Source of the DNA: a virus
Lineage: Duplodnaviria > Heunggongvirae > Uroviricota > Caudoviricetes
Length of the DNA: 64,000 bases
Direction: 5' to 3' (one strand)
Virus record (IMG/VR): IMGVR_UViG_2579778941_000001
Part shown: one piece after another, positions 1 to 37,666 of the stretch
How the letters are laid out: each line of letters starts with the position of its first letter
How positions within the stretch are numbered: position 1 is the first letter of the stretch
Position numbers and translations under genes: made by a program
The notes under the pieces: model-generated
Databases searched by the model: none
What the model saw: the letters and a program-made list of their open reading frames with translations, nothing else
Told to the model about the DNA's origin: nothing

Positions 1-334
1 CCGCCGCAACCAGTTGTTTCTGAACTTCAGCTTTTCGTTCCATTTGCCTGTCAGCATATTTGGCTTGTTCTGATTCATTTTTCACTTCCTGGCTGTGAAA
101 ATGTTGCTCTGCTTTGTTCATCGTCTCAATGGTCTGGTTAAGATCCATTATTGACTTATCACGTTCCTTAACAGCCTGATCAAGACTGCCAATTTTCTCC
201 ATGGCTTGCTTTAGCTGATGACGTTCCCATGCAAACCCAGCACCAACAAGTGCGCAAATCAGAACAAGAACACCAGTAGCAGCAAGTTTCTCCTTCAAAG
301 ACAAAGCTGTTTTTAACGTAGAAAAGAATGACAT
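1..334 (-). CDS. Partial CDS (N-terminal part; continues past window start): signal-anchor/TM helix followed by charged helical region; hypothetical membrane protein
   Basis: Not in ORF track because it runs off the window. ATG at 334-332 on minus strand with GGAGGA RBS upstream; translation MSFFSTLKTALSLKEKLAATGVLVLICALVGAGFAW... has a hydrophobic span then a Lys/Glu/Gln-rich segment. Confidence 0.4.
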   Translation of the reverse strand, partial: MSFFSTLKTALSLKEKLAATGVLVLICALVGAGFAWERHQLKQAMEKIGSLDQAVKERDKSIMDLNQTIETMNKAEQHFHSQEVKNESEQAKYADRQMERKAEVQKQLVAA

Positions 335-373
335 GTCTTCCTCCTGAAGAAAAATTATCAATGAAGTCCTTTG

Positions 374-1162
374 TTACTGTGCCGCTTTGTTTAATTCATC
401 AAGAACAGAATCAGGAACCAAAGCGGCAACTGCGCTGGCTGTGCTGACCTTATTTGCTGATGCTTCCGCAAGCGCGGTACCGATAGCATGGTTATAAGCA
501 GTTATGGCTACGTTGGCGCTTTCATTCGCTCGTTCATACTGCTGTTGTAACGCAGTTGTGGGCGCTGTTGTCTGGTTGAAAACAACCCCAAACTGTTCAG
601 TTGCTACTTTCAGAGATTCAATTTGCTCTTCTGTTAGTGCTGGTGGGGGAGTGGCAGTGCCGCCGCCTGAACCAGAGCCTGACGAGCTTCCTGAGCCAGT
701 GTTAAGGGTCTGGTTAATCTCCCCCATAGCAGCGACTAAACTTGATGTATTAAGCGCGTTTACAGCGTCCTCAAGCGATTTAGTAATAGTCACATCACCA
801 ATGGCAATAGAGATCGGCAGTTCTGATACTTCTCGCTCATTAGCACGACAGTAAACATCCCAACCAATATCGAGTTGAAGGAGCATTGACAGATCAGCAT
901 AACCAGCCAACAGGTCCGCGTGCTTAGTTGCCAGTTCTCCAATGTTCGTTAAGCCGGTTGTGGTTGTTCTGATCGTTGAAACATAGCTGGTAATAGTGTC
1001 GGGATAGACAATTGTATCCAGAATTAATCCGGTCAATTCTTCTGCAAGCAGTTTTGCTGTGTTAGCACTGTTTCGTGCCGATGTTATGGCACCAGGTGTT
1101 TTCATCCCACCGGCGGCGGCCAATTTTTTATATGCGGATAACTGGTAGTCTTTTTCCAGCAT
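374..1162 (-). CDS. Hypothetical phage protein with Gly/Ser-rich linker (probable start MLEKDYQ at 1162, not the upstream M of the ORF track)
   Basis: Long ORF; AGGAGA RBS before the internal ATG at 1162; GSGSSSGSGSGGG linker separates two domains. No family recognised. Confidence 0.4.
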   Translation of the reverse strand: MLEKDYQLSAYKKLAAAGGMKTPGAITSARNSANTAKLLAEELTGLILDTIVYPDTITSYVSTIRTTTTGLTNIGELATKHADLLAGYADLSMLLQLDIGWDVYCRANEREVSELPISIAIGDVTITKSLEDAVNALNTSSLVAAMGEINQTLNTGSGSSSGSGSGGGTATPPPALTEEQIESLKVATEQFGVVFNQTTAPTTALQQQYERANESANVAITAYNHAIGTALAEASANKVSTASAVAALVPDSVLDELNKAAQ

Positions 1163-1170
1163 GATATCTC

Positions 1171-1455
1171 CTAACTTACCTGAACCAGGCCGTCTCCGGA
1201 CGCTACGGTAGATCCGCATGAAACAGGGTCACCAACGCATACGATCCCTTTACCATTGACGGTAAACCATGCCCTGGTTGATATAGCTTGCCCACCGTGC
1301 GTACTGTTTCCATCGGTATGCTGTGCATATTGCTTACCATCAACTAACACTTCGACTCCGTTGACTTTAAGTAGTGGTTCACTCTCTACAGGAGGCCTGG
1401 ATGGGAATCCTCCGTGCCCCGAACAAATGCTGTCTTTTGTTGCAATACTTGCCAC
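1171..1455 (-). CDS. Small Gly/Cys/His-containing protein, possibly PAAR-like spike-tip protein
   Basis: 94-aa ORF; pattern CSGHGG...HGG...GDPVSCG loosely resembles PAAR-type metal-binding folds; weak assignment. Confidence 0.3.
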   Translation of the reverse strand: MASIATKDSICSGHGGFPSRPPVESEPLLKVNGVEVLVDGKQYAQHTDGNSTHGGQAISTRAWFTVNGKGIVCVGDPVSCGSTVASGDGLVQVS

Positions 1456-1535
1456 GTCATCACCAATTATTTGCTCTGGTTTTCGTTATTTTAACTTAGG
1501 TTACTTGTGGTCTATATGGTGTTAACTATTGCATG

Positions 1536-1552
1536 ATTGCTCTAATAAATAT
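1536..1552 (+). promoter_or_regulatory. C1 repressor operator-like site (ATTGCTCTAATAAATAT) upstream of the uhr-hrdC-dmt gene block
   Basis: 16/17 match to the P1 C1 operator consensus ATTGCTCTAATAAATTT as I recall it. Confidence 0.6.
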
Positions 1553-1908
1553 TGTTTTTTATGTCGTGTTTTCGGTACCATTCAGCCATCGCCCTTCAAT
1601 GGGTATTTGTTTGGAGTCGTCAGATGCAGATGGAGCTAATAAGCCGCAAAGAGTTCGATAGCCGTGTAACCAGCGGTGAACTCGACAACTTGCAGGCTAT
1701 CAAGGTGAAAGAAGGCTTTTGCCTCATTGGGAATCAGAGCGGAACAAATCGCGTTTTTATGCTTCGCCGTACGGATTTGAAGCCATTTGTCTGGAAGAAC
1801 GAAATTGGTCCCAGCTCATACGCTCAAACTAGGGGGTGTCTCAACCTGGCCTTTTTCTACAAAAACGAGCTTTCTGTGGTTGATATTCAAGGGTTACAAC
1901 ATGTTTAA
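1552..1908 (+). CDS. Hypothetical protein upstream of the rdgC homologue (uhr-like position)
   Basis: ORF immediately preceding and overlapping hrdC start; start codon uncertain (ATG 1552 or 1623). Confidence 0.3.
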
Positions 1909-2806
1909 GCACTGGAAAAACATTACTATTTATAAACTTTCTCGTGAAGCGGATCTGACCGACTTAGAAGATAAAAAGAAAATGATCCTTTTCACGCCAT
2001 GCGGTAGTCAGGATATGGCCAAGTTCGGTTTTGTATCTCCATTTGGTGATAATTCCGAAGTTATCGCTATGCATGGAAATGGTTTTATCCTTGTTGAAGC
2101 AAAGCGCGAAACAAAAATCCTTCCCCCGCCGGTTATCCAGCGAGCTATTCAAGAAAAAATTGAAAAACTCGAGCAAGAACAAGCGCGTAAACTGAAGAAA
2201 ACAGAGAAGGACTCCCTGAAAGACGAAGTTCTGCATTCTCTTCTGCCACGGGCTTTTTCAAAGTTTTCTGTTATCCAGGCGATCTACGACGGTTCAACTA
2301 AACGTATCTATATCAATGCCAGCGCGCGGCAGGCAGAGGATATGCTCGCGCTTATGCGTAAATCTCTGGGTTCTCTTCCTGTTGTTCCCCTAAGTGTTGA
2401 AAATCCCATTGAATTAACGCTGACCGACTGGGTACGTGATGGTAGTGCTCCACAGGGATTTCAAATGGGGGATGCGGCAGAACTTAAGGCAGTGCTTGAG
2501 GATGGCGGTATTGCCCGAGTGAAAAAGCAGGATTTGGGAAGCGATGAAATTTCCACACACCTGGAAGCTGGCAAGCTCGTTACTAAGTTGGCACTCGACT
2601 GGCAGAACCGCATTAAATTTACACTGGACCATAACTTCAGCCTTACCAGCGTCAAATTTGCGGATGAATTGCTTGAGCAGAACTCTGATATTGATAGTGA
2701 AGATGTTGCGCAGCGACTGGACGCAGATTTCTTCCTGTTGACCAGTGAAATTTCGTGCCTGGTTGATGCTCTGGTAAATGCCCTTGGTGGAGAGGCTAAG
2801 CAGTGA
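1901..2806 (+). CDS. hrdC: RdgC-family recombination-associated protein (P1 HrdC-like)
   Basis: N-terminus [13 protein letters not shown]...[19 protein letters not shown] matches the RdgC family N-terminal signature; about 301 aa like RdgC; start is an internal ATG of track ORF 1787..2806. Confidence 0.85.
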
Positions 2807-4821
2807 AAGAGCTGTGCTATGGATCTGTTTGCAGTGGAATTGAAGCCGCGAGTATTGCCTGGGAACCGTTGGGTATGCGTCCGGCGTGGTTTGCTGAAAT
2901 CGAGCCTTTTCCATCTGCCGTTCTTGCGCACCGCTGGCCCCATGTCGCCAACCTTGGCGATATGACAAAACTTGCCAAAAAAGTCCTGGCTGGGGAAATC
3001 GAATCCCCTGATGTGCTCGTCGGGGGTACGCCTTGTCAGGCATTCAGTATCGCGGGCTTACGTGGTGGGCTTGATGATGAACGCGGCGCGCTAACTTTGA
3101 AGTATGTGGAGCTTGCAAATGCAATTGACGACAAACGGTCTGAGTCCTTCCTCAAACCGACAGTTATCGTCTGGGAAAATGTCCCAGGAGTCCTGTCATC
3201 GGCAGATAACGCCTTCGGATGTTTCCTTGCCGGATTGGCTGGAGAAGATGCGCCATTTGAACCAGGTGATCGACCTGAATCAGGAAAAAGTAACGCGTTC
3301 TGGCGGTGGGATGGCAAAACCGGTTGCCATGCTCCAAAGTGGCCGCAGTGTGGTTGTATTTATGGACCGCAGCGAAAGGTGGCCTGGAGAATCCTTGATG
3401 CCCAATACTTCGGAGTGGCACAACGACGCCGACGCGTGTTTGTTGTCGCAAGTGCTCGAACAGACCTCGATCCCGCAACGGTACTTTTTGAGTTCGAAGG
3501 CGTGCGCCGGAATATTGCGCCGAGCAGAGGCGAGGGGAAGGAAACTACCAGATATACTTCAAACATCGCTATCAGATCTTGCGATGATACAAACATAGTT
3601 GCCATGGCACATGGGCAAGGAGGGGCTGAGATAAAAACCGATAATTCGGCACCAACTTTGACATGTAACCATGAAGCACCAATTGTATTGCTCGTCGACG
3701 GTAGAATGCGCCGTCTTATCCCTGTCGAATGTGAAAGGCTGCAAGGTTTTCCTGATGGACATACATTGATCCCTACGGAAAAGCGTAAAAAAGTTTCTTC
3801 AGATGAACTGGCATACCTTCGCAAAAACTATCCTGATTTGAGCGAAGAAGAGGCCGCGATGCTTGCAGCTGACGGACCGCGTTACAAAGCGATCGGCAAT
3901 AGTATGGCGATACCAGTAATGCGCTGGATTGGCGATCGGATTGCCAAGGCTGCATGTCGGCAGAAGGAAGGGAGTGAAACAAAAGAGCGAAAAGTTAAAC
4001 CAGCGGCAGAATTCGAACGGTCCATATTCAAATGGGCTGGTGGAAAATTTGGTGTTCTGGAACAAATCTTTCGCTATTTGCCAGAAGGGAAGCGCCTGAT
4101 TGAGCCTTTCGTTGGTGGCGGAGCTGTCTTCATGAATGCCGGATACCAGGAAAATCTGCTAAATGATGTGAATGCTGACCTGATTAACTTTTACAAGACT
4201 CTGCAACGCGAGGCGCATTCACTTATCACTCTGGCACATCGTTTCTTCCAGGACTACAACACGCAGGAAGGATACCTGGCAGTACGGAATGCGTTTAACA
4301 AACAAGTCTATGATGATTTACATCGCGCAGCGGCGTTTTTGTTCCTGAACCGACATTGTTTTAACGGATTGACGCGTTACAACCAAGCCGGTGAGTTCAA
4401 TGTCGGTTATGGGAAGTATAAAACTCCGTATTTCCCATTGCAGGAGATGGAAGCCTTCCTTGGTGCGGAAGGGCGTTCTGAGTTTGTATGTGGTGATTTT
4501 GCTGCGGTGATTGAAGCTGCCGGAGAAGGAGATGTCATCTTTTGCGATCCGCCGTATGAACCGCTCCCAAATACAGAGGGATTCACGAACTATTCCGGTC
4601 ATGACTTTAAGTTTGAAGAGCAAAAACGCCTGGCGTCTCTGTTGACGGATGCTCATCGCCGAGGTGCAAAGGTTCTCATTACTAACAGTGGCGCGCCAAA
4701 CATCAGAGAACTTTATCAGGACAGTGGCTTCAGAGTGGAACCTCTTTTTGCCAGACGTTCTGTGTCTTGTAAGGGGGACACTCGAGGTGTTGCTCATGAC
4801 GTTATAGCAATATTGCTCTAA
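2803..4821 (+). CDS. dmt: Bifunctional DNA methyltransferase: N-terminal C5-cytosine MTase domain fused to C-terminal Dam-like N6-adenine MTase domain
   Basis: C5 motifs [12 protein letters not shown] (PCQ), ENVPG (ENV), QRRRRVF; C-terminal [10 protein letters not shown]...[10 protein letters not shown]...FCDPPYEP is a clear Dam/D12-class signature. GTG start overlapping hrdC stop. Confidence 0.9.
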
Positions 4822-4828
4822 TAAATTT
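4812..4828 (+). promoter_or_regulatory. C1 operator (ATTGCTCTAATAAATTT, exact consensus) overlapping dmt stop codon
   Basis: Exact 17-bp match to the consensus. Confidence 0.65.
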
Positions 4829-5005
4829 ATTAGTGTAATATCGCCTCAATGAATCGTGATTTATAGAGCGATTTAGCTGTTAGCCGCGACAGGCGCGGCG
4901 GCAAGTATGGCGGGGTAGTGACTCCTTCCCCCTCATGACGCCGAGTTGCCAGGTTGACCATACGCCTAAGTGGCAACACCGAAGTGCGTTACGAGCTTCC
5001 AGTTT

Positions 5006-5031
5006 GCCCATCTTCGGGTGGGCGTTTTTTT
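5006..5031 (+). terminator. Rho-independent terminator downstream of dmt
   Basis: GCCCA-loop-TGGGC hairpin followed by T8 run. Confidence 0.55.
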
Positions 5032-5496
5032 CAGGGTTTTCGTCATGGTTAGCGACTTTGCGGCGGTTTAGAAACTGACCATTAAAGTAAATGCAAACGA
5101 TGATCTGATGATGGTAGCGGCCTAAGAAGCCAGACGCCACGGGGTATGAGTCGTCCCCCGTCAAAAAATCGACCGCAGAGTGTCCCCGTCTGTGTATTAG
5201 GGAACGGGGAGGCACAACAGGTAAGGGCGCTGGTGTGATTAACCAGATGAACGAGAAGGGGCCATCTGTTGGTCAGCGTCCTTTCCTGTTGCGTCTTCTT
5301 TTCAGCGTAACAGCGGTGCTTAACAGCACTTTGGGTACAGTTCCACGAATTTACGGGTATATCCCGTCATGCTGAAAGCGCTAATCACGCTGGAAGCCAG
5401 GGTTATGCATCCCCTGTTACCGAATTGCAGCCAGGGCGCGGTGCGCCGAAAAGCATACGGAGGTGGAAGCCCTCGCCGGAGACGTACCCGGCAAGT

Positions 5497-5572
5497 GATG
5501 GTGTAGCTCAGCGGTTAGAGCGGTTGACTGTTAATCAACGGGTCGATGGTTCAAATCCATCCACCATCGCCA
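5497..5572 (+). tRNA. tRNA-Asn (anticodon GTT)
   Basis: Hand-folded cloverleaf: acceptor GATGGTG/CACCATC, D-arm GCTC/GAGC, anticodon stem GTTGA/TCAAC with loop CTGTTAA, T-arm GATGG-TTCAAAT-CCATC, encoded CCA; 76 nt. Confidence 0.88.
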
Positions 5573-5574
5573 AT

Positions 5575-5650
5575 GCCGGTTTAGCTCAGTTGGTAGAGCG
5601 CCTGCCTTGTAAGCAGGATGTCAGCGGTTCGAGTCCGTTAATCGGCACCA
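5575..5650 (+). tRNA. tRNA-Thr (anticodon TGT)
   Basis: Hand-folded: acceptor GCCGGTT/AATCGGC, anticodon stem CCTGC/GCAGG with loop CTTGTAA, T-loop TTCGAGT, encoded CCA; 76 nt, 2 nt after tRNA-Asn. Confidence 0.88.
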
Positions 5651-5651
5651 G

Positions 5652-6450
5652 CACAACAGGTAAGGGTATTTTGCGACGTCGGAGATCGCCGAGCTTGGCA
5701 GAGGGTTCGAATCCCTACGAAGTACCCTTACCGTTGTGATGAATGCGCAGGCTGATGCGCGAAAGACATTGCAGCTATTGCGGAAAAGAGCTGTTCGGCG
5801 GGGCAATTAAACGCCCGTGAGAGTCTGAAATAACCGCAAGCCGGAGATCAGCACCGGTCATCACAACACAACAGGTAAGGGCATTCTCCCTTATGGGGCT
5901 TGGCTTAAATGCATCGAGTGCTCTTACCGTTGTGATGAAGTGCAGCTCTTTGAAGCAACCAGAAGATAAGCATCTGGCTTCACAACATAAACCGCAGGAA
6001 CGACCAATAAACGGTAGTCCGTATGGAGAACACCCCGTTGAGGAAGAGGCCTGGCCGGAACCGTAACCGGCACTACAACGTTGAGAACACTGGCGTAACG
6101 GGGTCATATCCCAATCTACGAATAAATGTTGCGTTGCAGCGTGACAACCAGTGTTCTCAACATTGTGGTGAATGCACAGGCTGATGTGCCGCAACTACAG
6201 TAGTGCGCGCTTTGCGGGGCTTGCTACAACCCTGTGTCGGAGTTCAGCACCGACCATCACAGTTTGATTCTCTGGCATGAGCATAACGCTGAAATAAGTC
6301 CAGCTTGGTGCGGCCCGATCACCCGCCGTTAGCTCCACGAAACGGAGCACGTAACAGGTAAGAGCATTCTCCTGTAACGGGTTCATATCCCAATCTACAG
6401 GTCCACCAAGAATGCTCTTTCCGTTGCGGTGAATGCGGCTAAGCGCACGC
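5652..6450. repeat. Array of four related long-stem hairpin elements (units about 5652-5760, 5859-5950, 6073-6190, 6348-6450), each followed by a conserved GTTGTGATGAATGC-like tail
   Basis: Each unit has a 14-22 bp stem (e.g. CTACAACGTTGAGAACACTGG / CCAGTGTTCTCAACATTGTGG) around a 25-55 nt loop; loops of units A, C, D contain T-arm-like hairpins (AGGGTTCGAATCCCT; GGGGTCATATCCC; GGGTTCATATCCC). No convincing ORF. Confidence 0.6.
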
Positions 6451-6578
6451 GGGGAAATGGTTATATCAGTCCATTCATTTCTCCTTGTTTCCCCGTCCAC
6501 GGTGGATAACCAGCCAAAGGACACCGGGAGGCACCCGGCACCGCAGCTTTTTTATTCGTTAAATAATGGAGTGAGAGG

Positions 6579-6815
6579 ATGCAGAACAATCCGAACAAAT
6601 GTCGAACGCTATGGGTGCGGTTATATATTTATGCCGTCCTCTGTTTGATTGTGTCACTGGTTCTGTATGTTTGGCTTTTGCCAAATATGATCTCATCTAA
6701 CAGCACAATACTTGTATTGTTGGGAGTCCTTCTCGCGCTCATTTACCCGGCTTTCGCAGTAGTCTTTTTTCGTGAAAAAACCAGGAAATTAATTAATGAA
6801 AAAAACGTTGATTAG
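6579..6815 (+). CDS. Small two-TM membrane protein, probable partner of the downstream SPFH lipoprotein
   Basis: 78 aa, two hydrophobic helices; 3' end overlaps start of 6796..7623. Confidence 0.45.
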   Translation: MQNNPNKCRTLWVRLYIYAVLCLIVSLVLYVWLLPNMISSNSTILVLLGVLLALIYPAFAVVFFREKTRKLINEKNVD

Positions 6816-7623
6816 TGCAGCGATTATTTTGGGTTCTTTATGTCTGACCGGATGCGATCGGGTAGAGCCAGGTAACGTAGGGATCAAAGTAAATAAGCTG
6901 GGGGATGATAAAGGTATCGGTGAAGTAGTTGGCGTTGGTCGCTACTGGACAGGCTTGAATACTGAAGTTTATATCTTCCCGACCTTTAAGCAAATGAAGA
7001 CATACGATGAGCCGTTCAGCTTCCAGATGAGCGACGGAACAACCATTGGTTACCACATCGGCGTAGCCTACAAGGTTGATCCAGCAAAAGTCACAACGGT
7101 ATTTCAGACCTATCGCAAAGGTGTAGATGATATTACTGATACCGATCTACGCCAGAAGGTTGCAGATGCTCTGAACCGGTTAGCCAGCAAAATGACCACC
7201 GACAAATTTATCGACGGTGGCAAATCTGAATTGCTTGATGCAGCCCTTAAAGACATTCAGGAAGAAATGACGCCAATCGGCATTCAGGTGATGAGCCTCT
7301 CTTATGTAGGTAAGCCAGAATACCCGCCAACAGTTATTGACAGTATTAACGCCAAAGTCACGGCAAACCAAAAAACCCTGCAACGCGAGCAAGAGGTCAA
7401 ACAACGTGAAGCAGAGGCCAACATGCTGCGCGCGGAAGCTGCCGGACAGGCTGATGCTATTCGCACAAAAGCCCAGGCCGAAGCTGATGCCATTCGTTTA
7501 CGTGGTGAAGCTCTGCGCCAGAACCCCGGTGTTATGGAGTTGGAAGCGATCAACAAATGGAACGGTACATTACCGCAGTATATGACCAGTAATACCGCTG
7601 TTCCGTTTGTTCCGGTGAAATAA
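6796..7623 (+). CDS. SPFH/band-7 (prohibitin-like) domain lipoprotein (plp-like position in P1)
   Basis: Signal peptide with lipobox LTGC; SPFH-like core followed by Ala/Glu/Arg-rich coiled coil (QREQEVKQREAEANMLRAEAAGQADAIRTKAQAEADAIRLRGEALRQ). Confidence 0.75.
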   Translation: MKKTLISAAIILGSLCLTGCDRVEPGNVGIKVNKLGDDKGIGEVVGVGRYWTGLNTEVYIFPTFKQMKTYDEPFSFQMSDGTTIGYHIGVAYKVDPAKVTTVFQTYRKGVDDITDTDLRQKVADALNRLASKMTTDKFIDGGKSELLDAALKDIQEEMTPIGIQVMSLSYVGKPEYPPTVIDSINAKVTANQKTLQREQEVKQREAEANMLRAEAAGQADAIRTKAQAEADAIRLRGEALRQNPGVMELEAINKWNGTLPQYMTSNTAVPFVPVK

Positions 7624-7650
7624 AAGCGTAAGCAAAATTGGCAGTAATCC

Positions 7651-7726
7651 GGCCCTTTAGCTCAGTGGTTAGAGCTGGCGACTCATAATCGCACGGTCAC
7701 CGGTTCAAGTCCGGTAGGGGCCACCA
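7651..7726 (+). tRNA. tRNA with CAT anticodon, closest to E. coli tRNA-Ile2 (ileX-like, lysidine-type) rather than tRNA-Met
   Basis: GGCCCTTTAGCTCAGTGGTTAGAGC...CTCATAA...GGTTCAAGTCC...AGGGGCCACCA; near-identical in acceptor, D and T arms to E. coli ileX as I recall it; 76 nt. Confidence 0.8.
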
Positions 7727-8012
7727 TATTTGGTTGTAACACGGCGTCTGGCACATGCGTCGTTAGCGGTCTGGTGACGTTAAAAGGGGGGAACCTTGCC
7801 CCTAGCTCAGGCAACGAACCAGGTAGCCGGAATGTGCAAGCCACCGTTTGTTGTTTCTCGGGTAAAGGGATTCACCATCCTGGCGATTCGGTGTGACAGC
7901 CGGGAAGAGTCCGGCGCATTAATCCTGATTTTCTGGTGATGACTCATATCGTTAGGAGTGATTTGAGTATGCCGATTATATCTGACATTCAGCACGCCTG
8001 GGTGGAGTGCTA

Positions 8013-9377
8013 ATGTCTGCATCCCCTCTTGAATCCATGCCAAATTCCCTTAGTGCAGAACAAGCTGTACTTGGTGGCTTAATGCTTGATAACTGCCGCT
8101 GGGATGAAGTTGCAGATCGTATAGTTGCTGATGATTTTTATACCAGTGCTCATCGTGAAATTTTCAGTGAGATGGAGAGGTTATTAAGTCATGGCAAACC
8201 GATTGATTTGATAACACTTGCTGAAGCACTTGAACAGAACGGTAAATTAGAACGCGCCGGTGGTTTTGCGTACCTTGCGGAGATGTCAAAGAACACGCCC
8301 AGCGCGGCAAATATTTGTGCTTATGCGGATATCGTTCGTGAACGCGCGGTTGTTCGTGAAATGATTTCCGTCGCAAATGAAATAGCCGAAGCTGGATATG
8401 CGCAGGATGGCAGGGGCAGCAATGAATTGCTGGATATGGCCGAGCGCCGCGTTTTTGAAATAGCTGAAAAACGACAAAAGAGCGGTAGTGGTCCAAAAGA
8501 TATCGCCAGCATTCTCGATGCAACGGTATCTCGCATAGAAGAGTTGTTTCAGCGACCACATGATGGTGTAACGGGGCTTGATACGGGATTTACCGATCTC
8601 AATAAGAAGACGGCAGGGCTTCAGCCGTCCGATCTCATCATTGTCGCCGCCCGCCCATCTATGGGGAAGACCACGTTTGCGATGAATCTCGTCGAAAATG
8701 CCGCAGTTCGTAACGATAAGCCCGTATTGGTTTTTAGCCTTGAGATGCCGAGCCACCAGCTGATGATGCGCTCACTGGCTTCTCTTGCACGCGTTGATCA
8801 GACTCGTATTCGGACAGGGCAACTTAACGACGAGGATTGGGCGCGGGTTTCTGGCGCAATGGGTATTCTGTTGGACAAGCAGAATATTTTTATTGATGAC
8901 TCAAGCGCCCTGACACCTACAGAGCTTCGTTCCCGCGCTCGTCGTGTTTATAAAGAAAATGGTGGTTTGAGCATGATTATGATCGACTACCTGCAACTTA
9001 TGCGCGTCCCCGAGCTGCAAGATAACCGAACGCTGGAAATTGCCGAGATTTCTCGCTCACTGAAGGCGTTGGCGAAGGAATTACAAGTACCGGTGGTGGC
9101 ATTGTCACAACTTAATCGATCGCTTGAACAGCGTGCGGACAAACGACCGGTAAATTCAGATTTACGTGAATCAGGAGCAATTGAGCAGGACGCAGACCTG
9201 ATCATGTTTCTGTATCGCGACGAAGTTTATCACCCGGATAGCGAAATGAAGGGCATTGCCGAGGTAATTATCGGAAAGCAACGAAATGGCCCAATTGGCA
9301 CGGTGAGATTGGCTTTTAACGGCCAATACTCACGGTTTGATAACTATGCTGGTGCTGACTGGCAAGAGGATTATTAA
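8013..9377 (+). CDS. ban: Replicative DNA helicase, DnaB family (P1 Ban)
   Basis: DnaB N-terminal domain (AEQAVLGGLMLD), Walker A region (ARPSMGKTTFAMN), DnaB C-terminal motifs (DLRESGAIEQDADLIMFLYRDEVY). Start ATG 8013 (GTG 8007 alternative). Confidence 0.9.
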   Translation: MSASPLESMPNSLSAEQAVLGGLMLDNCRWDEVADRIVADDFYTSAHREIFSEMERLLSHGKPIDLITLAEALEQNGKLERAGGFAYLAEMSKNTPSAANICAYADIVRERAVVREMISVANEIAEAGYAQDGRGSNELLDMAERRVFEIAEKRQKSGSGPKDIASILDATVSRIEELFQRPHDGVTGLDTGFTDLNKKTAGLQPSDLIIVAARPSMGKTTFAMNLVENAAVRNDKPVLVFSLEMPSHQLMMRSLASLARVDQTRIRTGQLNDEDWARVSGAMGILLDKQNIFIDDSSALTPTELRSRARRVYKENGGLSMIMIDYLQLMRVPELQDNRTLEIAEISRSLKALAKELQVPVVALSQLNRSLEQRADKRPVNSDLRESGAIEQDADLIMFLYRDEVYHPDSEMKGIAEVIIGKQRNGPIGTVRLAFNGQYSRFDNYAGADWQEDY

Positions 9378-31927: not shown

Positions 31928-33121
31928 GTGACCTGGGACGATCACAAGAAGAATTTTGCTCGCCTGGCGCGAGATGGTGGTTACACCATCGCACAGTATG
32001 CCGCCGAGTTTAATCTTAACCCTAATACCGCACGTCGTTATCTCCGTGCCTTCAAAGAAGACACCAGGACAGCGGACAGCCGCAAGCCAAATAAGCCAGT
32101 CAGGAAGCCTCTAAAAAGCATGATCATTGATCACGCTAATGATCAACGTGCATGTGATCACATTGTGGCTGAAATGGCTGAAAAACAAAGAGTTAATGCT
32201 GTTGTCAGTGCCGCAGTCGAGAACGCTAAGCGCCAAAATAAGCGCATAAATGATCGTTCTGATGATCATGACGTGATCACCCGCGCCCACCGTACCTTAC
32301 GTGATCGCCTGGAACGCGACACCCTGGATGATGATGGTGAACGCTTTGAATTCGAAGCTGGCGATTACCTGATAGATAACGTTGAAGCGCGGAAGGCCGC
32401 GCGCGCTATGTTGCGTCGGTCCGGGGCCGATGTTCTGGAAACCACTCTTCTGGAAAAGTCTCTTTCTCATCTCCTTATGCTGGAGAACGCCAGGGATACG
32501 TGTATTCGCCTGGTGCAGGAAATGCGCGATCAGCAAAAAGACGATGATGAAGGTACTCCGCCTGAATACCGTATCGCGAGCATGCTAAACAGCTGTTCCG
32601 CGCAGATAAGCAGCCTGATCAACACCATTTACAGCATCCGGAATAACTATCGAAAAGAAAGCCGGGAGGCGGAAAAGCACGCTTTATCTATGGGGCAAGC
32701 TGGCATTGTTAAGCTGGCATACGAACGAAAGCGTGAAAATAACTGGTCAGTGCTGGAAGCGGCTGAATTCATCGAGGCGCATGGAGGAAAAGTGCCTCCC
32801 CTGATGCTGGAGCAAATCAAAGCCGATCTGCGTGCTCCTAAGACCAATACCGATGATGAGGAAAACCAAACAGCATCTGGCGCTCCATCACTTGAAGATC
32901 TGGATAAAATCGCGCGAGAACGGGCCGCCAGCCGCCGCGCTGATGCCGCATTGTGGATTGAGCATCGTAGAGAAGAAATTGCCGATATCGTCGATACAGG
33001 TGGTTATGGTGATGTCGATGCGGAAGGCATATCAAACGAAGCATGGCTTGAACAGGATCTGGACGAAGACGAGGAGGAAGACGAAGAAGTTACCCGCAAA
33101 CTGTACGGGGATGATGATTAA
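31928..33121 (+). CDS. pacA: Terminase small subunit / pac-recognition protein
   Basis: 397 aa; contains the pac hexamer cluster inside its 5' part; acidic C-terminus; GTG start. Confidence 0.8.
32121..32279. other. pac packaging site: 4 + 3 TGATCA/G hexamers (32121-32160 and 32251-32279) flanking the cleavage region
   Basis: TGATCATTGATCACGCTAATGATCAACGTGCATGTGATCA ... TGATCGTTCTGATGATCATGACGTGATCA; each hexamer carries a Dam GATC site. Confidence 0.8.
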
Positions 33122-36182: not shown

Positions 36183-36216
36183 ATAACTTCGTATAGCATA
36201 CATTATACGAAGTTAT
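36183..36216 (+). other. loxP site-specific recombination site
   Basis: Exact ATAACTTCGTATAGCATACATTATACGAAGTTAT. Confidence 0.98.
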
Positions 36217-36235: not shown

Positions 36236-36308
36236 GATCAATTTACCTGTAAATCCATACAGTTCAATACCTTATCAGGTCAAATAGTGATCACTTGATC
36301 ATTTGATC
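36236..36308. promoter_or_regulatory. Cluster of Dam GATC sites in the cre upstream region (4 sites, 3 within 20 bp)
   Basis: GATC at 36236, 36289, 36297, 36305. Confidence 0.5.
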
Positions 36309-36634: not shown

Positions 36635-37666
36635 ATGTCCAATTTACTGACCGTACACCAAAATTTGCCTGCATTACCGGTCGATGCAACGAGTGATGAG
36701 GTTCGCAAGAACCTGATGGACATGTTCAGGGATCGCCAGGCGTTTTCTGAGCATACCTGGAAAATGCTTCTGTCCGTTTGCCGGTCGTGGGCGGCATGGT
36801 GCAAGTTGAATAACCGGAAATGGTTTCCCGCAGAACCTGAAGATGTTCGCGATTATCTTCTATATCTTCAGGCGCGCGGTCTGGCAGTAAAAACTATCCA
36901 GCAACATTTGGGCCAGCTAAACATGCTTCATCGTCGGTCCGGGCTGTCACGACCAAGTGACAGTAATGCTGTTTCACTGGTCATGCGGCGGATTCGAAAA
37001 GAAAACGTTGATGCCGGTGAACGTGCAAAACAGGCATTGGCGTTCGAACGCACTGATTTCGACCAGGTTCGTTCACTCATGGAAAATAGCGATCGCTGCC
37101 AGGATATACGGAATCTGGCATTTCTGGGGATTGCTTATAACACCCTGTTACGTATAGCCGAAATTGCCAGGATCAGGGTTAAAGATATCTCACGTACTGA
37201 CGGTGGGAGAATGTTAATCCATATTGGCAGAACGAAAACACTGGTTAGCACCGCAGGTGTAGAGAAGGCACTTAGCCTGGGGGTAACTAAACTGGTCGAG
37301 CGATGGATTTCTGTCTCTGGTGTGGCTGATGATCCGAATAACTACCTGTTTTGCCGTGTCAGAAAAAATGGTGTTGCCGCGCCATCTGCCACCAGCCAGC
37401 TATCAACTCGCGCTCTGGAAGGGATTTTTGAAGCAACTCATCGATTGATTTACGGCGCTAAGGATGACTCTGGGCAGAGATACCTGGCCTGGTCTGGACA
37501 CAGTGCCCGTGTCGGAGCCGCGCGAGATATGGCCCGCGCCGGAGTTTCAATACCGGAGATCATGCAAGCTGGTGGCTGGACCAACGTAAATATTGTCATG
37601 AACTACATTCGTAACCTGGATAGTGAAACGGGGGCAATGGTGCGCCTGCTGGAAGATGGCGATTAG
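36635..37666 (+). CDS. cre: Cre tyrosine recombinase
   Basis: 343 aa, MSNLLTVHQNLPALPVDATSDEVRKNLMDMFRDRQAFSEHTWKMLLSVCRSWAAWCKLNN... matches Cre. Confidence 0.97.
   Translation: MSNLLTVHQNLPALPVDATSDEVRKNLMDMFRDRQAFSEHTWKMLLSVCRSWAAWCKLNNRKWFPAEPEDVRDYLLYLQARGLAVKTIQQHLGQLNMLHRRSGLSRPSDSNAVSLVMRRIRKENVDAGERAKQALAFERTDFDQVRSLMENSDRCQDIRNLAFLGIAYNTLLRIAEIARIRVKDISRTDGGRMLIHIGRTKTLVSTAGVEKALSLGVTKLVERWISVSGVADDPNNYLFCRVRKNGVAAPSATSQLSTRALEGIFEATHRLIYGAKDDSGQRYLAWSGHSARVGAARDMARAGVSIPEIMQAGGWTNVNIVMNYIRNLDSETGAMVRLLEDGD

Follow-up and report, generated by a model that had tools for sequence, protein, structure and literature searches.

DNA methyltransferases that join a C5-cytosine and an N6-adenine half have been recorded in phages P7 and P1. 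P7 Dam (AAQ07538, AF503408 / NC_050152) is a 672-aa protein that its record calls a hypothetical bifunctional methyltransferase for N6-adenine and "perhaps" for C5 cytosine, and P1 Dmt (AAQ14041, AF234172 / NC_005856), formerly called P1 Dam, is a 754-aa protein whose C5-cytosine activity is likewise annotated only as "perhaps". P1-family dmt is under C1 control and is switched on during the lytic cycle (PMC4713147); it is dispensable when the host is dam+ (PMC10695390), and pac cleavage needs Dam or Dmt methylation (PMC12707154, PMC11437467, PMC7253447). GATC methylation of pac goes back to Sternberg & Coulby 1990, as cited in PMC12707154 and PMC7253447; both the GATC activity and the pac requirement were measured on P1. 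The two halves also have described relatives of their own: E. coli Dam (PDB 2g1p, 4rtj and others), a D12-class enzyme of the alpha group, and the monospecific C5 methyltransferases of the M.HhaI / M.HaeIII type. The Bacillus phage multispecific C5 methyltransferases (SPR, phi3T, rho11s, H2) have a cassette architecture (PMC8936443, PMC12707154) that recurs in relatives of the gene described here, the likeness being one of architecture.

Identity of the gene and architecture of its product

We analyzed a 64,000-nucleotide stretch of DNA (IMG/VR virus record IMGVR_UViG_2579778941_000001), hereafter the window, which is a P1-like (Punavirus, IncY) phage-plasmid. Its gene at 2803..4821 is the already described dmt (P7 "dam"), ordinary for P1-like phages: a textbook P1/P7 gene, known from about 1990 onwards to serve pac cleavage through its Dam function. 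An earlier note on this DNA did not name it as the long-known dmt. The gene and its parts are:

2803..4821, plus strand: dmt in its P7-type allele, encoding 672 aa in which a C5-cytosine and a Dam-family N6-adenine DNA methyltransferase are fused
2803..3957, plus strand: C5-cytosine half, aa 1-385, from Pfam and NCBIfam matches and motif-wise alignment to M.HhaI
3436..3708, plus strand: TRD, the variable region within the C5 half (aa 212-302), where dmt is polymorphic; one recognisable cassette (28 aa)
3955..4014, plus strand: charged linker joining the two halves (about aa 385-404), lying between aa 381, where the M.HhaI-like alignment stops, and aa 405, where that to E. coli Dam begins
4015..4812, plus strand: D12-class N6-adenine methyltransferase half of the Dam family, aa 405-670, from Pfam, NCBIfam and the E. 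coli Dam alignment

In the ORF list the gene is one uninterrupted frame of 672 codons with a GTG start, which confirmed the single polypeptide proposed earlier. The domain search also bore out the proposed succession of a C5 half and a Dam-family half (PF00145/TIGR00675, then PF02086/TIGR00571), in the same order as in P1 and P7. The product would be a single protein of 672 aa (75 kDa), in which the charged linker connects two catalytic domains, each AdoMet-dependent and independent of the other.

Identical copies (100%) of the window dmt were found in one plasmid, E. coli NZ_MK410117.1 (WP_000660970.1), and among NCBI proteins. The P7 gene is slightly further away, with 96.8% nucleotide identity over all 2019 nt, fully colinear, and 97% amino-acid identity (AAQ07538). 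It has the same length, short variable region, operon and operators, and differs from the window by scattered substitutions only. P1 dmt has the same gene position and the same N- and C-terminal sequences, and matches the window gene except in the variable block: the first 720 nt are 99.7% identical, the Dam half about 98%, and nucleotide identity outside the block is 97%. In P1, the block between motifs VIII and IX has 173 aa of different sequence and three cassettes, against 91 aa in the window.

The best 120 protein-homologue matches comprised near-identical P1-family clusters only. Fusions of the same C5 family to a D12 Dam also occur outside the P1 family (clusters P0122, P0124 and P0126-P0130, 56-69% identical), and other members of the C5 family are fused to adenine methyltransferases of different families, with a PF05869 Dam partner in cluster P0136 and MT-A70 in P0155. 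Records that keep the C5+D12 fusion number 461 for plasmids and 17 for phages, and several of these distant clusters keep it too, which argues that both halves are under selection. As for an artefact of assembly or sequencing joining two adjacent genes, one record could be read that way: vB_EcoM-673R5 is annotated with three CDSs across the gene (2263 nt vs 2265). However, the frame is continuous in P1, P7, SJ46, RCS47, hundreds of plasmids and the distant fused homologues. The split record is an exception explained by frameshifts. We rejected an artefactual fusion, whose probability we regard as negligible.

In about a quarter of the dmt copies on plasmids, a LAGLIDADG intein sits immediately ahead of the catalytic cysteine (Cys78 in the window protein). 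This Hint/LAGLIDADG element was found in OP279344, RCS47 and 133 plasmid records, and is absent from the window dmt, whose empty site is at 3025-3045.

Taken as a whole, we consider it highly probable that the window gene is a P1-family dmt of the short, P7-type, intein-less kind, repressed by C1, with a Dam half serving pac and a C5 half likely to have one m5C target. Within this reading, the identity, architecture, motifs, operon with its operators, and presence of GATC targets were obtained here, and statements on P1 and P7 annotation were taken from the GenBank records.

Operators, promoter and the uhr-hrdC-dmt operon

The 17-mer consensus of the C1 operator occurs 16 times in the window, where 0.27 occurrences are expected. 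The elements around dmt are:

1536..1552, plus strand: Odmt (former Op68), C1 operator of uhr-hrdC-dmt; consensus with one mismatch; P1 Odmt and P7 Op(dam), as annotated, have the same sequence
1552..1581, plus strand: Pdmt, sigma-70 promoter, -35 TTGTTT, -10 TACCAT, placed here because the sequence equals that of the annotated P1 promoter
1624..1908, plus strand: uhr, first gene of the operon; an ORF whose position corresponds to P1 uhr and P7 upf64.0
1901..2806, plus strand: hrdC, RdgC-family (PF04381 RdgC, E 5.6e-98)
4812..4839, unstranded: Oban a/b (former Op72ab), bivalent C1 operator overlapping the dmt stop; 0 and 2 mismatches, from the P1/P7 annotations

The stretch from the operator to the start of uhr is identical to P1, in whose record Pdmt is annotated; a simple sigma-70 consensus scan missed this promoter. 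The stop of hrdC overlaps the start of dmt in the tetranucleotide GTGA at 2803-2806, read directly from the sequence, and translation of dmt is probably coupled to that of hrdC because its GTG lies within this overlap. dmt is the last cistron of uhr-hrdC-dmt, an operon that C1 at 1536-1552 would keep silent in the lysogen; once C1 repression is lifted, the three genes would be transcribed from Pdmt.

The gene had been described as flanked by C1 operators. Operators do lie on both sides, yet only the distal upstream one, Odmt, controls dmt: it stands 1.25 kb from the gene, ahead of the whole operon and not adjoining dmt itself. The pair at the 3' end is Oban, made of a perfect match at 4812-4828 on the plus strand and a partner at 4823-4839 on the minus strand, and in the P1 and P7 records its role is to control ban, the operon that follows, and not dmt. 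The order of the neighbourhood is common to P1, P7 and the window: upfB/upfC homologues, Odmt, uhr, hrdC, dmt, Oban, tRNA-Asn and tRNA-Thr. An Rfam scan of positions 1-12000 returned three tRNAs only, with no DicF-family match; the P1 record annotates a dicF-like region downstream of Oban.

The Dam-family half and its GATC targets

The C-terminal half contains KWAGGK (aa 410-415), the AdoMet-binding EPFVGGGAV (434-442) and the catalytic DPPY (582-585). Aligned to E. coli Dam, these stand in the alpha-class order, with FxGxG first and DPPY later. The PF02086 D12-class profile matched aa 411-644 (E 1.2e-57, 196 bits, cut-off 22; Pfam) and TIGR00571 dam passed its curated cut-off (253.9 bits vs 114.85; NCBIfam), whereas the E. 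coli Dam equivalog NF008152 was not reached (248.6 bits vs 441). This half is a member of the Dam family and not an orthologue of the host Dam. Residues 405-670 align end to end with residues 4-267 of E. coli Dam 2g1p_A (a 278-residue chain; E 1e-58), and FKWAGGK and DPPY are conserved with respect to the crystal-structure chains. Horton et al. in 2006 reportedly found that E. coli Dam contacts GATC through K9, Y119, N120, L122, R124, P134, R137 and Y138. In the alignment the equivalents of K9, N120, L122, R124 and Y138 are kept in the window protein, and Y119F, P134G and R137K are changed; these three replacements and the unreached equivalog cut-off speak against the main reading. Besides falling below the equivalog cut-off, the window domain differs from the host enzyme in being fused behind a C5 methyltransferase, phage-encoded and C1-repressed.

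About 5 of 268 residues differ between the P1 and window Dam halves and, by analogy with P1, the C-terminal domain would methylate adenine in GATC on replicating phage DNA. Candidate targets in the window are:

32121..32279, plus strand: pac site inside pacA, with 4 + 3 TGATC(A/G) hexamers; known physiological target of GATC methylation, its role taken from the literature
36236..36308, plus strand: four GATC sites between loxP (36183-36216) and cre (36635-37666), read from the sequence, with Cre recognised by PF00589

The pac site is the sole place in the window with at least five GATC in 170 bp, and the earlier proposal that GATC methylation feeds into pac agrees with both these hexamers and the literature (PMC12707154, PMC7253447). 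Full methylation of the hexamers would permit pacase cleavage and hence the start of packaging, and the Dam half would free the phage from the host Dam. It may also act on GATC-sensitive promoters, for example upstream of cre. Sternberg et al. in 1986 reportedly described the region upstream of cre as regulating cre by Dam methylation; the link to cre that had been proposed for this DNA agrees with that account, and the four GATC sites lie in this region.

We also considered whether, besides the fusion, a late promoter within the gene and an internal in-frame start (Met353, 368 or 373) yield an extra protein with the Dam half alone late in infection, which would give the two activities a partly separate timing. 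The P7 record predicts such a promoter, LPdam2, within the gene, and the same 19 bases are found in the window:

3791..3809, plus strand: LPdam2-identical sequence inside the C5 half, predicted late promoter, -22 AAGTTTCTT, -10 TGAACT, a prediction of the P7 record

In-frame ATGs lie between the predicted promoter and the Dam domain, and the Phrog_56 profile, beginning at its position 1, aligns with aa 353-670. Against this, LPdam2 is a prediction that has no annotation in the P1 record, and no transcript or protein evidence for a shorter product was found. We regard a separate Dam-only product as unlikely.

The C5-cytosine half and its variable region

The PF00145 profile matched the N-terminal half in two stretches (E 2.4e-35, 122.9 bits, cut-off 22; Pfam) and TIGR00675 dcm passed its curated cut-off (112.9 bits vs 100.65; NCBIfam). 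Aligned to M.HhaI, this half has motif IV as TPCQ at 76-79 (PCQ 77-79), VI as ENV at 125-127, VIII as QRRRR at 207-211, IX at 303-318 and X as GNS at 365-367, in the canonical order of M.HhaI / M.HaeIII-type enzymes. It also shares with them a TL dipeptide about 17 residues before motif IX and a variable region of similar size. Unlike them, it has a variant motif I, about 40 extra residues inserted between motifs VI and VIII, and the C-terminal Dam fusion. Motif I reads CSGIEA (aa 10-15, with C10) instead of FxGxG, and only the central glycine is kept.

Natural dmt alleles differ almost only by cassettes between motifs VIII and IX. At 91 aa, the window TRD is the shortest variable region among 92 family representatives, and is close to the size of a single-specificity TRD (about 100 residues in M.HhaI, judged from where motifs VIII and IX align). 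TRD DNA of the window type was found in 184 of 498 dmt-holding PLSDB plasmids. The relatives have variable regions of 150-420 aa, in which short conserved cassettes stand in varying combinations and orders; two to four of the cassettes defined here were counted in regions of 161-419 aa. The longer alleles include those of SJ46 (807 aa) and pEC190329_2 (862 aa). Unlike the Bacillus phage multispecific enzymes, the window allele has a single cassette and not several in tandem between motifs VIII and IX.

Across the family, the C5 variable region is a mosaic of shuffled short cassettes. BLAST within each single variable region revealed no internal repeats; no cassette is a recent copy of its neighbours. 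Our literature searches returned no description of a Dmt cassette mosaic or intein, and a 77-genome comparison of P1-like plasmids does not mention dmt (PMC9603915). Tentatively, and from sequence comparison, we propose that the Dmt C5 half belongs to a large non-Bacillus phage C5 family in which the TRD may be built of combinatorial specificity cassettes of about 30-50 aa, swapped by recombination between phage-plasmids and functionally like the Bacillus phage multispecific enzymes. Alternatively, the cassettes could be structural variants of one large TRD.

In the literature searched, there was no experimental demonstration of m5C by Dmt and no reported m5C target, and it could be argued that the C5 half is catalytically dead or repurposed as a DNA-binding or tethering module, leaving a protein that functions only as a Dam. 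The variant motif I and the shortness of the variable region would fit such a loss, as would the PGAP name of the window protein, which mentions the Dam family alone. However, the catalytic PCQ, ENV, QxRxR and motifs IX and X are intact, and invariant across six alleles that differ elsewhere; TIGR00675 passed its cut-off, and the TRD is about as large as the monospecific M.HhaI region. An active prophage C5 methyltransferase, M.BatI, has a comparable cysteine-containing motif I, CxGxxG (PMC8936443). That cassettes are shuffled within the TRD and nowhere else is understandable chiefly if specificity is of consequence. In addition, inteins typically sit in functional sites, and that of the relatives lies directly before the catalytic cysteine. 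Together, these observations make a dead C5 half improbable. We infer m5C activity and an anti-restriction role for dmt: as read from the sequence, the C5 half would most likely place m5C on one short target, and this mark would shield progeny DNA from restriction enzymes of that single specificity. The m5C target of P1 Dmt, if any, is expected to differ from that of the window because the block between motifs VIII and IX differs.

The earlier note had gone further, claiming that dual methylation would give broad protection from host restriction, and in that form the claim is unsupported: GATC methylation blocks only enzymes sensitive to methylation of the site, and the allele has the smallest TRD of the family sample. 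A fusion whose main job is broad anti-restriction through double methylation of phage DNA would be in line with phage orphan methyltransferases often being self-protective (review PMC12707154), and members of the C5 family with several shuffled cassettes would widen protection. But the window allele has one cassette only, the enzymes blocked by GATC methylation are very few, and dam+ hosts already supply this mark. m5C also makes DNA a substrate for nucleases that require modification, McrBC of E. coli being one. Moreover, the documented phenotype of P1 dmt is packaging and not restriction, and the known anti-restriction functions of P1 are the Dar proteins (PMC12707154). We find broad anti-restriction very unlikely as the main job of the fusion, and retain the reading in which the Dam half serves pac and the C5 half probably modifies one sequence.

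For the window itself the gene matters little, being the already known dmt. If the cassette reading is true, the window holds the minimal, one-cassette allele, whereas P1, SJ46 and pEC190329_2, with three to five cassettes, would methylate correspondingly more motifs, and the homing intein directly before the catalytic cysteine would spread independently of the cassettes. P1-like phage-plasmids are common carriers of resistance genes in Enterobacteriaceae, and assigning a motif to each cassette would help to predict their restriction-evasion spectrum and to read m5C signals in nanopore data of carrier strains.

A C5-Dam fusion of the P7 type

The dmt gene at 2803-4821 (+) is one uninterrupted ORF, 672 codons long and starting with GTG. 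Pfam recognises in its product a C-5 cytosine methylase (PF00145) in two stretches of the N-terminal part (E 2.4e-35) and a D12-class N6-adenine methylase (PF02086) at aa 411-644 (E 1.2e-57). Both halves score above curated NCBI thresholds (TIGR00675 dcm, 112.9 vs 100.65 bits; TIGR00571 dam, 253.9 vs 114.85 bits). A search against solved structures matched nearly the entire E. coli Dam to aa 405-670 (E 1e-58), and KWAGGK, the FxGxG-type AdoMet loop EPFVGGGAV and the catalytic DPPY all lie within this alignment. When the N-terminal 400 aa were aligned to M.HhaI, TPCQ (76-79) fell on motif IV, ENV (125-127) on motif VI, QRRRR (207-211) on motif VIII, a 16-residue stretch (aa 303-318) on motif IX and GNS (365-367) on motif X; motif I is the variant C10-S-G-I-E-A. 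The earlier note had described a single polypeptide with a C5 half preceding a Dam half, and these profile matches, far beyond chance, together with the motif alignments, bear that description out, domain order included.

The window is a P1-like (Punavirus) phage-plasmid, and its gene is not new. The dmt/dam genes of 18 P1-family phage records are 95-99% identical to it, and 498 PLSDB plasmids, nearly all non-mobilizable and from Escherichia or Salmonella, contain a copy. The exact protein is present in NCBI: IncY plasmid NZ_MK410117.1 has a 100% identical gene, whose product WP_000660970.1 is named "Dam family site-specific DNA-(adenine-N6)-methyltransferase". Phage P7 Dam has the same length (672 aa), 97% identity and full colinearity; in P1 Dmt (754 aa) the sole difference from the window protein is that the stretch separating C5 motifs VIII and IX has been replaced. 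The P7 record already annotates its protein as hypothetical and bifunctional, methylating N6-adenine and perhaps C5 cytosine, and the P1 record does so in like terms, so the finding is a rediscovery of the P7-type dmt. The window gene is itself recombinant: its first 720 nt (2803-3522) are 99.7% identical to P1 and its last 1110 nt (3712-4821) 96.1%, the identity differing between the two flanks of the variable block, and the entire gene is 96.8% identical to P7.

The C5 enzyme's fusion with an adenine methyltransferase is a recurrent design rather than a peculiarity of the window. A search of 1.84 billion cluster representatives turned up more C5+D12 fusions, with no more than 56-69% identity to the window protein (P0122, P0124 and P0126-P0130; 749-1148 aa), and the same C5 family was joined to partners from two other adenine-methyltransferase families, a PF05869 Dam (P0136) and MT-A70 (P0155).

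Operators and transcription

Features around the gene, in window coordinates
1536-1552: Odmt (Op68), C1 operator identical to P1 Odmt
1624-1908: uhr, upstream of dmt
1901-2806: hrdC, upstream of dmt, RdgC family (Pfam, E 5.6e-98)
4812-4828: Oban (Op72ab), perfect operator match, with an inverted partner at 4823-4839; they overlap the dmt stop codon

The dmt start overlaps the hrdC stop in GTGA (2803-2806), and GGAGAGG lies 7 nt 5' of the GTG, an arrangement suggesting that dmt translation is coupled to hrdC. P1 and the window are identical from Odmt to the start of uhr, including the annotated Pdmt promoter. Allowing up to 3 mismatches, the 17-bp C1 operator consensus was found 16 times in the whole window (0.27 expected); matches also cluster at 18.9, 21.0, 31.3-38.2, 48.5 and 52.3 kb. 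C1 operators do stand on both sides of dmt, as had been proposed, but this flanking is true only literally: both the P1 and P7 records assign the 3' pair (4812-4839) to the downstream ban operon, and dmt itself is regulated only from the distal upstream operator. The gene is among the C1-controlled genes induced in lytic growth (qPCR, PMC4713147).

LPdam2, a late promoter within the gene, is a prediction of the P7 record and is absent from the P1 annotation. The same 19 bases occur at window 3791-3809, within the C5 half and 5' of in-frame Met353, Met368 and Met373, so that a separate, Dam-only late product is possible but unsupported.

Beyond Oban, a strong terminator-like hairpin with a T run (5002-5024) falls in a stretch annotated as dicF-like in P1; no Rfam match to DicF reached the gathering threshold around it. 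Three tRNA genes follow.

5497-5572: tRNA-Asn (GTT)
5575-5650: tRNA-Thr (TGT)
7651-7726: tRNA with CAT anticodon, Ile2 in the P1 annotation vs Met in ARAGORN

Probable activities of the two halves

For the P1 protein, both Dam activity and its role have been established in published work: cleavage at pac requires adenine methylation, which either the host's Dam or the phage's Dmt provides (Sternberg & Coulby 1990, as cited in PMC12707154, PMC11437467 and PMC7253447). The pac site, inside pacA, is the only dense GATC cluster of the window (7 sites in 170 bp), in agreement with the proposed link between GATC methylation and pac. The window also holds loxP and a four-GATC cluster upstream of cre.

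32121-32160: pac, four TGATCA hexamers
32251-32279: pac, three TGATC(A/G)
36183-36216: loxP
36236-36308: four GATC sites between loxP and cre
36635-37666: cre (PF00589)

Sternberg and colleagues reportedly observed in 1986 that the cre promoters respond to Dam methylation. In the alignment the Dam half keeps the E. coli Dam residues K9, N120, L122, R124 and Y138 but has F for Y119, G for P134 and K for R137; the protein scores below the cut-off of the E. coli Dam equivalog. In its Dam half the window allele is ~98% identical to P1, and on this ground it would target GATC.

On a dam+ host dmt is dispensable (CRISPRi screen, PMC10695390). Consistent with this, the P1 laboratory record AF234173 has an incomplete dmt, and that of vB_EcoM-673R5 (L007 201-2463) is split into three CDSs; at 2263 nt vs 2265 in P1 it carries frameshifts, real or sequencing errors. 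The window copy is intact and has neither defect.

For the C5 half, our literature search found no report of experimental work. An active enzyme is the likelier reading, because its catalytic motifs are intact and do not vary between dmt alleles, hundreds of elements have kept the fusion, and M.BatI, with a comparable Cys-containing motif I, is an active prophage C5 methyltransferase (PMC8936443). The earlier note, right at its core, overstated anti-restriction: we found no support for "broad" protection, the recognition region of the window protein being the smallest in its family. GATC methylation blocks few enzymes, and m5C can attract modification-dependent nucleases, e.g. McrBC.

Intein and cassette mosaic

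Alleles of dmt encode 672 (window, P7), 754 (P1), 807 (SJ46), 862 (pEC190329_2), 1013 or 1095 aa. The two longest carry a 341-aa insertion within motif IV (GGTP | CFTAGH...VVHN | CQAFS) matching Hint_2, LAGLIDADG_3 and intein-splicing in Pfam. Pro77 precedes it, and the catalytic Cys78 follows it as the +1 residue.

L004 532-1554: intein DNA in the dmt of OP279344
L003 532-1554: intein DNA in the dmt of RCS47
Window 3031-3036: empty site, the window dmt having no intein

Of the 498 plasmid records with dmt, 133 contain the intein DNA, with 99% identity or more in 128. The host gene falls mostly in the 95-99% band. The intein has the lower G+C (0.43 vs 0.50), and intein alleles show synonymous changes, relative to the window, in the three codons that precede the insertion. 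A diverged intein occupies the same position in P0129, a 56%-identical fusion.

Intein excluded, all length differences among alleles lie between motifs VIII and IX, a region of 91 aa in the window, 173 in P1, 226 in SJ46 and 281 in pEC190329_2.

Window 3436-3708: variable region, one cassette

SJ46 contains the window's block (25 residues) plus others, and pEC190329_2 joins a P1 block with SJ46 blocks. Both motifs could be placed in 92 family representatives; the region between them spans 91-419 aa there (median 249), and the window's is the shortest. Of the 150 best representatives, 101 contain one or more of seven blocks defined from the four P1-family alleles (E <= 1e-5), and 48 of these have 2-4 of them together, variously combined and in either order. 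The window's 28-aa core recurs at 75-100% identity (E <= 1e-3) in 28 representatives otherwise no more than ~70% identical; of the 498 plasmid copies, 184 have the window-type block. The variable region is a mosaic of short conserved cassettes, found in differing combinations and orders across the family. The same architecture has been described in multispecific C5 methyltransferases of Bacillus phages (PMC12707154, PMC8936443), and each cassette here may confer a separate target. This cassette mosaic and the intein are the sole parts of the gene that might repay experiments.
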